DNA of 62,586 nucleotides, counting the filler, from Globobulimina sp. (Eukaryota), in the NCBI GenBank assembly GCA_003354225.1. It is 39 parts of 39 records of this genome, joined end to end, with 100 filler letters (N's around TTAATTAATTAA, not from the genome) between each part and the next. Parts side by side here need not be neighbours in the genome. Positions count along the whole stretch, not along the records: positions 3,219 to 4,726 come from PIVH01015562.1; 38 more parts are not named here. One strand, written 5' to 3'. The position numbers and the translations under genes were made by a program. The notes below the pieces were generated by a model, which was given only the letters and a program-made list of their open reading frames with translations, searched no databases and was not told the DNA's origin. This document shows positions 1,659-7,471 of the stretch, piece by piece (the first letter of the stretch is position 1; every line of letters starts with the position of its first letter).

Positions 1659-3116
1659 TTACTTATTTGTACGAGACAAACATTGTTGTCTGGCGTCTTG
1701 CAATATTTTAACTAATTTTTTATTTTTTTTTTCGTTAACAATATCAATCGCACTTTTACCATTTGCATTTTTGACATCAATATATAGTAATTTTGATTTA
1801 AAATTATCACCAAATGCATCTAATAAATATTCAACATTTGCAATTTTACCTCTTTGACAACAAACCATTAATGGCGTCATGTTATTTGGTTTATTAAATG
1901 TAGTAATAATGCTTTGTATCTTCTCTTCGTTTTCCGTATTCAATTCTTGACAAATGAATTCCATATGTTTTACATTATTCCAACATGCAAAATGAAACAA
2001 ATTCCATCCATTATTATCAGCATCAAATACAATATTACGAATTAATTCTCCTTCTACATCTTTACTGTGACTGTCATTCAATTCTTTAATTTTACTTAAT
2101 ATCAGTTTGCCAATCGGAACAACGCTCGTTTTAAACGAATAATGTAATGCATTCATACCGTTTTTATCCTTAACATTAATATATTTTAATAACGCAATCT
2201 TATCTGTGTTAATATTATCAAATAATAAATTCAATGTATCAGTTTGCTTCGCTCCGCTAAGATGGCATGCACACATTAATATAGTTTTATTCTCAATATC
2301 TAGTTCATTCAAAATAATATGCGATACATCAATATTATTTTTCTTATATATACTAATTACACATTGTGCTTTTGCATAGGAAGTATACGCAGCACATACG
2401 GACATAAATCGTTTGTTCACTATTTTAATTAACTCGTTTTTATTATGAATTGCATCACACAAAAATGCAAACACTGGAATCTCACGAATAGAATCAATAC
2501 AATCAATGCATGGTTTCATTAATGCATTCATTTGTGCTGAATTCAATCCATTTGTAATATGTGCCAATAATTCACTTTTTAATTGATACGCCGTACAAAT
2601 CAATTTAAACACTGTATCACCGGCATTATTTTTTTGATTTAAATATTTGAATTTCAACTCAGTATTTGCTATTAAATCAAATATGAATTCTAAAATATCC
2701 CATCCTTTATTGGCAGCATAATGTAATGCAGACCAACCATTCGAATCTTTTTTATCCAACGCAGCGCAAACATTTTCATGGTATCTCCCATCATCGCCCA
2801 CTATTTCTTTTGATAATAAACTTTTAACGACATGAAAATGTCTATATTTACAATATTCCATCAAACACGAAAAGTTTTTGTCTTTGAATACTGTATTTTT
2901 TAAGACCCATTTGGTTAATTTAACATTGTTATTCCTGCACGAATAATATAACACGCCTTGATCGCCTGGGTCGTCATAACCGTCTGTGTTTTGCAAGTCT
3001 TCTTTAAAATAATTTGTCACGCTTTTTGGGTATAATTTCATTAATATTTCCAAAATTTGAGTTGAATTCGCTTCAATCGCATAACCAATCGGTGCATGGC
3101 CGACATCATCGCATAA
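1659..3116 (-). CDS. Ankyrin-repeat protein, 5'-partial
   Basis: Repeated ankyrin motifs DSNGWSALHYAA, DKNGMNALHYS, DNNGWNLFHFAC, NNMTPLMVCC, NANGKSAIDIV. Frame open to the contig edge (LCDDVGHAPIGYA). Confidence 0.9.
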   Translation of the reverse strand, partial: LCDDVGHAPIGYAIEANSTQILEILMKLYPKSVTNYFKEDLQNTDGYDDPGDQGVLYYSCRNNNVKLTKWVLKNTVFKDKNFSCLMEYCKYRHFHVVKSLLSKEIVGDDGRYHENVCAALDKKDSNGWSALHYAANKGWDILEFIFDLIANTELKFKYLNQKNNAGDTVFKLICTAYQLKSELLAHITNGLNSAQMNALMKPCIDCIDSIREIPVFAFLCDAIHNKNELIKIVNKRFMSVCAAYTSYAKAQCVISIYKKNNIDVSHIILNELDIENKTILMCACHLSGAKQTDTLNLLFDNINTDKIALLKYINVKDKNGMNALHYSFKTSVVPIGKLILSKIKELNDSHSKDVEGELIRNIVFDADNNGWNLFHFACWNNVKHMEFICQELNTENEEKIQSIITTFNKPNNMTPLMVCCQRGKIANVEYLLDAFGDNFKSKLLYIDVKNANGKSAIDIVNEKKNKKLVKILQDARQQCLSRTNK

Positions 3117-3219
3117 ATNNNNNNNNNNNNNNNNNNNNNNNNNNNNNNNNNNNNNNNNNNNNTTAATTAATTAANNNNNNNNNNNNNNNNNNNNNNNNNN
3201 NNNNNNNNNNNNNNNNNNT

Positions 3220-4434
3220 GATTTTTTTAATGGCCACACAAAGACAACAAAAGAAACAGATAAAAACATAAAAAAGCTCGACATAAATATGTACTTCAAC
3301 CAATTTCGACGCGCATTAAACGAGCAACAATATAAATTATTGCATGATTTAGAGAGTACTGAAGAGAAAGAGTACGAATTAATTATTGATAAACACGAAA
3401 TATTATCGCAAATTAAGCAATTTGGTTCTATCCAAAGCCGAACAACGCATACAAATAACAATTCTGTCATCATTCATTCTGATATCGATAATGAGCTAAA
3501 GAGCGATGATGCAATGGATTCGAATCCTAAAATGGAAACAATGGCTATGAAAAAGAAGTTGATTTTGGGCCAAATCCAGCAAAAAACCATGGATAAATTA
3601 GATATGATCATATTAATGGAAAAAGAGGCAAACGCAAAATCAAAGCAAGCCGACGCGTTACGGCAAGAAGTTGACGAAGGACTCAAATATATCACTGAAC
3701 GAAGGAAAATAATCAACGATAAAATTGCGATCGCTACGCCTGAGCTACGGAAGGCAAAACTAGCTGTTTCTGGTATCGATCCCAGGGACATCAATGAGAT
3801 AAAAACACTCAAATCTCCACCAACTGTGATTGAAAAGGTCATCACTGCGACCGTTATGATCTTAGGTTTGTTGTGCTGCATTGTTGCAAGCTCATGTTTT
3901 TTTCTTCAAAGTTTTTCACTCAAACCCATGTCGCCATTTTCATCACTTACTTCAGGGCATAAGATTAAGCAATGGAGGGATGTTCAGAAATTGTTGAGTT
4001 ATAAGTTTAAACCGCAATTAATGAATTTTGATACCTATACGCTCACAAAAGCAACGCGACAGAAAGTGTATCAGAGATATGCAGGGAAAGAAGATTTCAC
4101 TTTTTCACGCGTATATTCTGCGAGTAAAGTATGTGGGAATTTGGTGTTGTGGGTACTGTCGCAAATTAATTATTCGCGAATGTTGGATGTTATCATCCCG
4201 TTGGAAAAGGAAGTTAAGAAATTGAAAAGAAAAAGTGAAAAAAAAGAGAAATTGATGAAAGAGTTAATAAGAATTGTAAAGGAGTTGGAAGTTAACATTG
4301 AACTCTATACAACGGAATGCGATCAAATGATTGATCATATCATAAAAAGTACGGACGATGAATTAAAGCAATTTAGTGAGAAACTACAACCATTAAATAA
4401 AAAATTCAATCAATTATTAAATAAATGTATGTAA
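3220..4434 (+). CDS. Coiled-coil protein containing a cytoplasmic dynein stalk + microtubule-binding domain, without AAA domains; in-frame 90-nt intron 3866-3955; 5'-partial
   Basis: ATPELRKAKLAVSGIDPRDINEIKTLKSPPTVIEKVITATVMILG/HKIKQWRDVQK...ASKVCGNLVLWVLSQINYSRMLDVIIPLEKEV follows the dynein heavy chain CC1-MTBD-CC2 pattern. Removing GTTTGT...TTCAG restores ILG-HKI. Confidence 0.85.
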   Translation, partial: DFFNGHTKTTKETDKNIKKLDINMYFNQFRRALNEQQYKLLHDLESTEEKEYELIIDKHEILSQIKQFGSIQSRTTHTNNNSVIIHSDIDNELKSDDAMDSNPKMETMAMKKKLILGQIQQKTMDKLDMIILMEKEANAKSKQADALRQEVDEGLKYITERRKIINDKIAIATPELRKAKLAVSGIDPRDINEIKTLKSPPTVIEKVITATVMILGLLCCIVASSCFFLQSFSLKPMSPFSSLTSGHKIKQWRDVQKLLSYKFKPQLMNFDTYTLTKATRQKVYQRYAGKEDFTFSRVYSASKVCGNLVLWVLSQINYSRMLDVIIPLEKEVKKLKRKSEKKEKLMKELIRIVKELEVNIELYTTECDQMIDHIIKSTDDELKQFSEKLQPLNKKFNQLLNKCM

Positions 4435-4827
4435 ATATAAAGAAATATATAATATAATATATATATATATCAATATATTGCTTGGTTATCAATATCTGCA
4501 CTGTCATTTTTCTATATTGTTTTTTTTATGTTTGAACGTTACGCCATTTGCCTATGTTATTGTATTTGCTATATCTATTTCGTTTATTGTACCTTTAATT
4601 ATTTTTCTAAAAAAGCACAGTTTTTCATTGCTACTTTTTTAAATAATCAATCTCTACATTTCATCATGGCGACGCTTGTAAAAGATCTGAACTCTTCTGT
4701 GATGACAGGAGTGTCATCTTTTGGAGNNNNNNNNNNNNNNNNNNNNNNNNNNNNNNNNNNNNNNNNNNNNTTAATTAATTAANNNNNNNNNNNNNNNNNN
4801 NNNNNNNNNNNNNNNNNNNNNNNNNNC

Positions 4828-5358
4828 TTTTCAATCAAAGAGATTGACATTGCTGTTGTACCGGATGTTGGTACTTTGGCAAGAATGCCAAAACAAATTG
4901 GAAATGCATCATTATTGCGAGAACTTGCATATTCTGGAAGGATATTTAAATCTGATGAAGCATTGCAATTAGGTTTAATTAGTCGTATTTTTGATACAGG
5001 GGATTTACTAAGGAGTGGTGCATTGGATATGTGTAAAGAAATTGCATCAAAATCACCTGTTGCAATTCGGTAAGTCTTTATATAACATGTCAGATTTAAA
5101 TATTTGTATATTTTTGACAATGACATAACTATTATTAAAGCATAGGCATATTCATATTGTCAAGAATATGAAATCTGACATGTTTATAAATTAAGAGGAA
5201 TTAAATATATGTTTAATTATGAAATGTCTGGTAAATCGCCAAGAGAGTTACAAAAAATGATACAAATATTAAATGGAAGTTTATTGCAAACAGATGATAT
5301 CACAAAAGCAGGAATGGCTTTTTTCGCGAAAAAGAAACCTACATTCTCCAAATTATAA
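4828..5358 (+). CDS. ECH1: Delta(3,5)-delta(2,4)-dienoyl-CoA isomerase (crotonase family), 3' part, with PTS1; intron 5070-5195
   Basis: FSIKEIDIAVVPDVGTLARMPKQIGN..LLRELAYSGR. The spliced product continues SPVAIRGIKYMFNY and ends KKPTFSKL*. Confidence 0.88.
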
Positions 5359-6434: not shown

Positions 6435-7471
6435 CAGTATCTGTACGTGTTGGATCACGTGGTGTTGGATGTTTCAAATATAAATGTTATTTGGAATGCA
6501 ATACATACTAAAACATGAGAGCTCAGATTTATGATTAAATGCAACCACAGAGACAAACGATGAAGAGCCCAATGTTTTCAATACTGAAATAACTGCTTGT
6601 TTGGCAATATCCAAACGTTGGCTGTCTTTCATAGATCCGGATCGATCAATGAGAAGAATAACATCCTTTGGCCCACTCGCTGCGGAAACATACCAAGGTC
6701 GGAATCTTGGATCGTATGAGGAATAGGCTCCATTTGTATCTCTCACATTTTCCACACCCGGATATACCCGAAATACTCCATTGATTGTACCAAAATACAT
6801 TTGACAGTATTCTTCATTCCCTTTAGCATCAATACAATAATTATCATATAAATCAATCATTATATCTTCCAGTAACACAGATATCTGTATGTGTTATTTA
6901 ATAACATGTGAACATTAAAAACAAATATTCAAATAACTTGAGCGTCTTTTTGAATATTTTCGTTGTTGTAATCTATTCCGTTTGGCAATTTATAGGTTGA
7001 TTGGGATAAAGAAACTGCATTTCCATACACTGCATTATATTCCACATCGTGTGGTAAATATGCATCACGTTCAGTATTGCCTGAAAATTTTAGTTGGTCG
7101 AAATCTGGAATAGATTCAATGTCTGAATCATAATCATACGCATATTTGATGCATGACTGTTGAATTGTGGCTGTCAGATTTTTGAGAAACGAAGCTCGAA
7201 GATTTAATTTCTTATCCAGCCGATCAATTATTTGTTTTGTTATAATGGATGTATCCTCAATATCGTCTTCAAAATGGTTGGCAAATGAGGCGATAAAATC
7301 TTGTATTCCATACGCTTGATTGCTACATTTATCACCGCCAACAGAGAGGCCACCACAAAACAATGACTTTATTTCAGTGCTAAATTCTTGAATGTATTTG
7401 CTTATGTTTTGAGATTCAGTAAATTGAATTACAAATAAGCCTAATGACACAAGGTGAAAAACTGAAGACAT
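6435..7471 (-). CDS. Secreted alpha2-delta/CACHD1-like VWA protein; introns 6885-6937 and 6441-6508; 3'-partial
   Basis: N-terminal signal peptide; YFGTINGVFRVYPG, YDPRFRPWYVSAASGPKDVILLIDRSGSM (MIDAS DxSxS). GT-AG introns join the frames. Confidence 0.85.

Follow-up and report, generated by a model that had tools for sequence, protein, structure and literature searches.

Passive microtubule cross-linkers of the PRC1/Ase1/MAP65 type combine a dimerisation rod, a folded microtubule-binding domain and a basic disordered tail. The dynein heavy chain itself is split in some basidiomycete fungi, where both parts carry AAA domains and a single motor is rebuilt from them. The dynein stalk and its microtubule-binding domain (MTBD) have also been engineered onto a non-motor base, and this SRS-MTBD fusion is reported to decorate microtubules without ATP, so that the module is able to act by itself (3err; 10.1101/590786). 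Coils of TRIM proteins are described as antiparallel dimers (PMC8251876). Foraminiferal pseudopodia are reported to contain bundled microtubules (PMC2111848), and foraminiferal microtubules to be built partly of divergent tubulins (PMC5455982) and to be convertible to helical filaments (PMC4990898).

Structure of the stalk gene

The window, the whole stretch of DNA analysed here, comprises 62,586 nucleotides from Globobulimina sp. (GCA_003354225.1), filler included, and joins 39 contigs of ∼1.5 kb through N linkers; the assembly itself is in 48,370 pieces. One contig, C15562 (PIVH01015562.1, positions 3219 to 4726, 1,508 bases), carries the 3′ portion of a gene that is spliced and encodes a dynein-type stalk. 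Its frame (3220 to 4434) is open from the 5′ edge of the contig to a TAA at 4432 to 4434, and joining the exons after removal of a 90-nt intron unites both halves of the MTBD. Contigs from 4 public runs (of 10 listed) were aligned to C15562; those named below are X1, X2, X3 and X6. The features of the locus are as follows.

3220-3865, plus strand: upstream coding exon (coil, linker, CC1 and the MTBD up to the intron), cut at its 5′ end and without a start codon; X2 covers 3219-3863 with 3 differences
3232-3435, plus strand: TRIM/B-box-C-terminal-like coil with a short helix, a probable dimerisation rod judging from profile matches, lengths and the homodimer model of the relative P0002
3436-3537, plus strand: polar/acidic low-complexity linker, from the sequence; the matching residues 315-357 of P0002 are modelled at pLDDT <50
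3538-3738, plus strand: CC1 stalk helix, from PDB matches and alignment; helix 361-437 in the P0002 model
3739-4200, plus strand: dynein MTBD from the first stalk proline to the second, 124 aa once spliced, with 44% identity to the MTBD of the genome's own dynein-1
3778-3783, plus strand: Asp-Pro at the mouse K3298/K3299 site in helix H1, from the alignment
3866-3955, plus strand: intron of 90 nt, GT..AG, in frame and free of stops; skipped in X2 and X3, spanned in X1
3956-4434, plus strand: last coding exon (remainder of the MTBD, CC2, tail and TAA), from the sequence and X2
4117-4119, plus strand: Ser at the mouse R3382 / Dictyostelium R3469 site in helix H6, from the alignment
4201-4332, plus strand: CC2 stalk helix, from PDB matches, alignment and the P0002 model
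4333-4431, plus strand: C-terminal helix particular to the family, standing where a heavy chain has the rest of CC2 and AAA5, and kept in relatives; the helix of the P0002 model runs to residue 624
4435-4665, plus strand: AT-rich 3′ UTR or spacer, 22% GC; X2 is colinear over 3954-4628
4666-4726, plus strand: start of a neighbouring lipin (phosphatidate phosphatase) gene, separate from the stalk gene, from the overlap with contig C10507

The frame matches the Pfam MT family (PF12777) at 30.4 bits (cut-off 24), and its top PDB matches are the cytoplasmic dynein-1 stalks 3wuq and 5ayh (E 3e-17), in two pieces with the intron exactly between them. Both stalk prolines are kept (codons at 3739 and 4198). 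No AAA family is matched by Pfam on the frame, and the place of AAA4 before CC1 is occupied by the coil and linker. The PDB matches stop at QMI; the 33 residues that follow are un-dynein-like, yet conserved among motor-less relatives. In these respects the initial annotation, which described a full CC1-MTBD-CC2 segment of cytoplasmic-dynein type with both prolines, a coil and linker upstream instead of AAA4, and a loss of similarity at QMI, was accurate. It likewise placed correctly the stop at 4434, the AT-rich spacer behind it and a new ATG near 4666, and it was right that the frame is intact and has an intron of its own.

Splicing is seen directly, since X2 and X3 drop precisely the 90-nt intron and X1 retains it. 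From the spliced joint, X2 and X3 are taken to be cDNA; no run is recorded as RNA, and an intronless DNA copy is conceivable because the paralog C29258 lacks an intron there. The earlier suggestion that GTATGT just before the stop (4427) might be a donor fails, as the sole public contig that crosses it, one of run X2, stays colinear with the genome between 3954 and 4628, across both the hexamer and the stop, although six in-contig AG sites could be joined to it on paper. The 3′ end of this X2 contig is presumably library adapter rather than the end of a transcript. At the other end, a second X2 contig extends 284 nt 5′ of C15562, so that the gene starts beyond C15562; the start codon lies outside the window, and a DNA search for an overlapping 5′ contig of the same genome found none.

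The last 138 nt of C15562 (4589 to 4726) match the end of C10507 (L036) at 98%, and C10507, which bears Lipin_N, Lipin_mid and LNS2, together with C15562 supplies the start of the lipin gene. Because this gene begins at 4666, there is no space for AAA5 after the stalk. The mismatches in the overlap suggest two alleles separated by the assembler. Elsewhere in the window, the preceding unlinked contig encodes an ankyrin-repeat protein (1659 to 3118, minus strand), the following unlinked contigs hold a piece of an enoyl-CoA hydratase (4828 to 5070) and a VWA-domain piece (6477 to 6893), and positions 2 to 616 resemble, by eye, the C-terminus of a retroelement protein, with no Pfam match.

The coil of C15562 is 68 residues long, compared with 104 to 109 between the same anchors in five paralogs, a difference of ∼38 residues. 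This shortening is real, because X1 and X2 have it too, as does X6, which is more diverged (38 differences over 3219 to 3665).

The foraminiferal family and its origin

The motor-less architecture described initially stands, and the C15562 gene is no isolated oddity: it is a member of a conserved foraminiferal family of motor-less stalk proteins. Within the same genome, the close paralogs are C4319, C7513, C29258, C3529 and the N-terminal piece C24484, and C3661 and C194 are more distant. C4319 and C7513 yield complete gene models (586 and 599 aa) and carry an intron at the same site (217 and 172 nt, respectively); C29258 (L002, 318 to 902) has none where three other copies do. The first stalk proline is replaced by Arg in C7513 (L005), whose MTBD has a net charge of -1. 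A protein search returned 9 relatives among 4,159 candidates (48-62% identity), labelled Nonionella stella, Bolivina argentea, Ammonia sp. and a cluster that includes Elphidium margaritaceum, along with further 2.1-2.2-kb contigs; full-length relatives are thus present in transcriptomes of these four genera as well as in this genome. Further relatives came from a profile search and from a subfamily C query (23 matches). All labelled members of the three subfamilies, A to C, are foraminifera (one label is cut before the organism name).

Full-length relatives measure ∼530 to 690 aa, begin with a basic disordered N-terminus and carry no AAA domain. The scan for flanking AAA domains, proposed at the outset, found none in the C15562 frame or in any of 10 full-length members by Pfam, compared with AAA_9 in 7/7 heavy-chain pieces; MT is the only dynein family found in all 10, and RING, B-box, filamin and NHL domains have no Pfam match in them either. 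Among 37 tallied relatives, 31 end 13 to 36 residues past the stalk, the others being 4 that are cut short, 1 heavy-chain fragment and 1 stalk-less protein. A search for a fused long form among proteins of 1100 to 3140 aa gave 3 matches (27-31% identity), all ordinary heavy chains, which is weak evidence. The genome also holds seven contigs with AAA-flanked stalks and has axonemal-type dyneins, and C786 is its intact cytoplasmic dynein-1 (AAA4-stalk-AAA5-AAA6). The family is apparently undescribed: no account of it was found in the papers searched, which hold few subscription titles; the supplements of the Reticulomyxa genome paper and of broad dynein surveys may list such genes.

Several members depart from the common plan. 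The second stalk proline is absent in 3/3 subfamily B rows. Subfamily C (C3661 = L033, 1213 to 1450; P0026, P0027) has a conserved small helical N-terminal domain, SAM-like by impression only; neither this domain nor the coil of the family matches a Pfam family. A lone divergent MTBD-like frame without a clear stalk (Pfam MT, 34.9 bits) occupies 1481 to 2089 on the minus strand of C6041 (L037), adjoining a zinc-knuckle gene on the opposite strand.

The origin of the stalk was traced in an LG+G4 tree of 61 hand-chosen rows out of 154 stalk rows (230 columns), in which heavy chains were labelled by BLAST to those of the same genome, C786 being the one checked against PDB, and which holds no named radiolarian or cercozoan sequence. 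The 26 rows of subfamilies A (which includes the C15562 gene), B and C group as a single clade (97/93). Inside dynein-1, this clade is sister to C786 together with three stalk fragments that lie in other foraminiferal proteins (100/99), and the stalk therefore derives from the lineage's own dynein-1 gene. The borrowing seems to have happened more than once. Further fragments of stalk or MTBD that are close to the own dynein-1 occur in C12933 (L011, 694 to 1701), C21039 (L013, 2 to 1042), P0031, P0034, P0037, P0038, P0039 and P0056, where they sit in unrelated foraminiferal proteins, some of them broken by a short repeated motif; these look like separate, more recent borrowings. Among stalk-only proteins that are unlabelled or come from outside foraminifera, Gefionella okellyi P0041 carries two tandem stalks and groups with dynein-2-like rows, P0107 (1,150 aa) has four MT stretches, and P0087 has an MTBD divided by a long basic insert, all three with no AAA domain by Pfam. 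Because of the two-stalk Gefionella protein and the four-MT protein, stalk reuse is, on sequence grounds, a recurrent event across protists.

The MTBD of C15562 is under purifying selection, with dN/dS of 0.05 to 0.08 against three paralogs; these values are rough, as dS (1.7 to 3.3) is near saturation. The region ahead of the stalk gives 0.37 against C4319.

Predicted fold and the tubulin-facing surface

Structurally, the family was modelled through its full-length member P0002 (AlphaFold2, 11 sequences, mean pLDDT 60). The model predicts 209 disordered residues, a helix at 217 to 283, a short helix at 305 to 315, a loose linker and then the stalk, made up of CC1, the helices of the MTBD, and a CC2 that continues to the C-terminus. 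Foldseek ranks 5ayh, a dynein stalk, first for this model (E 2e-12, TM 0.75 on target). The first 160 residues of relatives carry a net charge of +24 to +36 in 6/7 cases and +5 in the seventh; a basic N-terminus in the C15562 copy is inferred from these paralogs.

The coil had been likened to B-box-associated coils, a weak resemblance near noise level: a profile of five paralogs matches the TRIM3 coil (8amr, E 7e-4) and the Brat coil (6j9r, E 9e-4), and also the unrelated YjbJ (E 1.6e-3). ESM Atlas returns best matches of 0.90 to 0.91 without names, followed by ARA70/SPATS2-like proteins at 0.84 to 0.89, which are a lead only, the ARA70 match to the coil being below cut-off; a single-protein search of the genome with the coil gave 4 matches. 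Modelled as a homodimer, P0002 residues 205 to 322 score 0.66 (best control 0.00), with predicted antiparallel contacts, at least 97% of contacts agreeing between runs and pLDDT of at least 80. The mark for a dimer was reached by 21/30 pairs and 0/23 single chains in a microbial benchmark, and by 17/29 pairs (1/7 where there was no older solved relative) and 0/30 single chains among eukaryotes. As TRIM coils have already been solved, the pass may reflect structures that the predictor had learned. The ∼38 coil residues absent in C15562 pair in this model, which was made with the relative P0002.

For the tubulin-facing surface, 49 rows were aligned and mouse residue numbers were mapped onto them by hand. 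This mapping uses the two-residue human-mouse numbering offset; the named residues land on the right types. In dynein, K3298, K3299, R3306, R3342 and R3382 are reported at the tubulin interface (PMC4987762, PMC6125590, 10.1101/590786), and Dictyostelium E3390 and R3469/K3472 form two salt bridges in the strong state (PMC4298687). Across the 26 rows of subfamilies A, B and C, the E3304 site (Dictyostelium E3390) is always Glu, the R3306 site is always basic, and the Dictyostelium K3472 site is K/R in 25. The R3382 site, on the other hand, is basic in none of 17 A and B rows (Glu in 11, Ser in C15562), compared with 7/9 C rows and 18/20 dynein-1 rows; P0191, an early-branching member found later, has Lys there. 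The K3299 site is Pro in 13/14 A rows and keeps its Lys in 9/9 C rows; in C15562, K3298/K3299 are replaced by Asp-Pro, followed by Arg, where the own dynein-1 has Asn-Lys. The E3289 site, at which a change to Lys is reported to make dynein runs longer, is Lys in C15562 and in 9/13 A rows covering it. The net charge of the MTBD is positive in 13/14 A rows and stands at +11 in C15562, compared with +12 in the own dynein-1.

By sequence, this is a tubulin interface that is recoded, not erased, and the loss of the Arg in H6 and of the Lys pair in H1 counts against strong canonical binding. The genome contains 64 Tubulin_C matches, a large expansion of canonical and divergent alpha and beta types, of which 30 were examined and 25 were readable. 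No compensating charge swap was seen in alpha-tubulin, the Arg and the acidic cluster being kept in all 11 H11-H12 stretches read.

Proposed function and relation to known systems

The best reading, which we hold with modest confidence, is that these proteins are ATP-independent dimeric microtubule binders or cross-bridges, that is, passive MAPs. The role put forward initially, a reused module acting as a MAP, tether or dynein competitor, is plausible but tempered by the replaced H6 and H1 residues of subfamily A. The gene arose by duplication of the stalk-MTBD part of the foraminiferal dynein-1 gene and its fusion to an N-terminal region made up of a basic disordered stretch and a TRIM-like coil, giving a non-motor protein of ∼600 residues. 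Two chains would pair antiparallel through the coil, as modelled on the relative. The dimer would then present a pair of stalk-MTBD arms, which would bind the tubulin lattice, and a pair of basic tails, which would hold the acidic C-termini of tubulin. Binding would be independent of ATP because no AAA ring cycles the register of the stalk. With the Arg of H6 and the Lys pair of H1 lost, a single MTBD of subfamily A probably binds weakly and diffusively, and the avidity of two heads and two tails may compensate. The outcome would be bundling, spacing or tethering of microtubules, most likely in reticulopodia; this location is inferred, in a genome that also has axonemal-type dyneins.

The subfamily A MTBD could instead have been retuned to foraminifera-specific tubulin (alpha2/beta2, free dimers or helical filaments), making the protein a chaperone or switch of the conversion of microtubules to helical filaments rather than a bundler. 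We consider this unlikely. The interface replacements are conserved, non-random and under purifying selection; the MTBD is reported to sit on the intradimer interface (10.1101/590786), and helical filaments are thought to lack longitudinal between-dimer contacts and to retain the lateral ones (PMC4990898). Retarian alpha2/beta2 tubulins are described with altered surface sites, possibly MAP-binding (PMC5455982), and this genome has the 64 Tubulin_C matches noted above. However, the H11-H12 stretch that dynein reads is mostly unchanged in the tubulins read, and nothing ties the stalk protein to helical filaments.

A role as motor regulator, either as a roadblock or competitor on the dynein/kinesin footprint or as a sink for stalk-binding factors that tunes reticulopodial transport, is distinctly unlikely. 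The footprint is shared with dynein by descent, subfamily C keeps Lys at the H6 site in 7/9 rows and K3299 throughout, and fast bidirectional microtubule-based transport is reported in Reticulomyxa (PMC13371060); yet the weakened MTBD of subfamily A would be a poor competitor, and cross-bridging better accounts for the dimer rod and the basic tail.

We regard as very unlikely the idea that the subfamily A stalk-MTBD has ceased to bind tubulin and serves as a rigid arm with a new partner at its tip, leaving microtubule or nucleic-acid binding to the basic tail alone. The charge reversal at the H6 site, the Pro in H1 and the one paralog MTBD at net charge -1 point that way, whereas the retained E3304, R3306 and K3472 sites, the positive net charge of nearly all A rows and the unchanged stalk fold point the other.

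That the family is functional and the C15562 copy alone is decaying is highly improbable. This copy has a short coil and a 5′ end out of view, lacks the coil residues noted above, shows the elevated pre-stalk ratio and has the second-longest end branch among the subfamily A copies of its own genome; but the coil deletions preserve the reading frame, the intron is spliced out, the MTBD of the copy is strongly constrained, and an equally short coil is found in the more diverged X6. Finally, a piece of a dynein heavy chain, whether an exon misplaced by an assembly or splicing error or half of a motor whose remainder is supplied in trans, is largely refuted despite the 5′ end beyond the contig, the GTATGT ahead of the stop and the fragmented assembly, given that the donor is read through into the sequence before a lipin gene, that the MTBD is just 44% identical to that of an intact dynein-1 with its own stalk between AAA4 and AAA5, that complete relatives lack AAA domains, and that the long-protein search yielded ordinary heavy chains only (3; weak evidence).

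If the proposed binding holds, the protein would work like a passive cross-linking MAP. The dynein stalk-MTBD is regarded as a motor component, and its natural, conserved and motor-free use would be a new route to a MAP. The family supplies small, expressible, named candidates for organisers of foraminiferal pseudopodial microtubules, and its subfamilies would form a natural affinity series at positions studied by mutagenesis (R3382, K3298/K3299 and E3289), one that would test the grip of the MTBD when the register of the stalk is not set by an AAA ring. The interface change weakens the simple MAP reading, yet raises the experimental appeal of the family. A broader and rather speculative proposal, unlikely as it stands, is that the foraminiferal stalk family comprises lineage-specific non-motor tubulin binders in affinity-tuned subfamilies, of which A would read foraminifera-specific tubulin states and be among the factors that bundle reticulopodial microtubules or gate the conversion to helical filaments.

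By the domain content described above, the product of the stalk gene is neither a dynein heavy chain nor a TRIM protein. Like cytoplasmic dynein-1 (PF12777; 5ayh, 3wuq, 3err, 6rzb), it has the CC1-MTBD-CC2 fold, both prolines, E3304 and several basic interface sites, and its MTBD of 124 residues lacks the axonemal flap. Unlike the heavy chain, which has a tail and linker and spans ∼4,000 to 4,600 aa, the motor-less proteins are without tail, linker and AAA ring and end ∼30 residues past the stalk; unlike the dynein-1 interface, that of subfamily A has its H6 Arg and H1 Lys pair replaced. The coil may resemble those of TRIM-NHL proteins (TRIM3, 8amr; Drosophila Brat, 6j9r) and NCOA4/ARA70, going by a weak profile match (below cut-off for ARA70) and the antiparallel dimer predicted for P0002, but is about half as long and, by Pfam, comes without RING, B-box, filamin or NHL domains. 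As in the split dynein of basidiomycetes, parts of dynein lie in separate genes, but here they carry no AAA domain and coexist with an intact dynein-1. The family would follow the design logic of PRC1/Ase1/MAP65, with no sequence or fold kinship found and a binding domain that is dynein's own. Like the SRS-MTBD fusions, it places a stalk-MTBD on a non-motor base; whereas those are artificial and locked in register, the base here is a natural one, in a foraminiferal protein.
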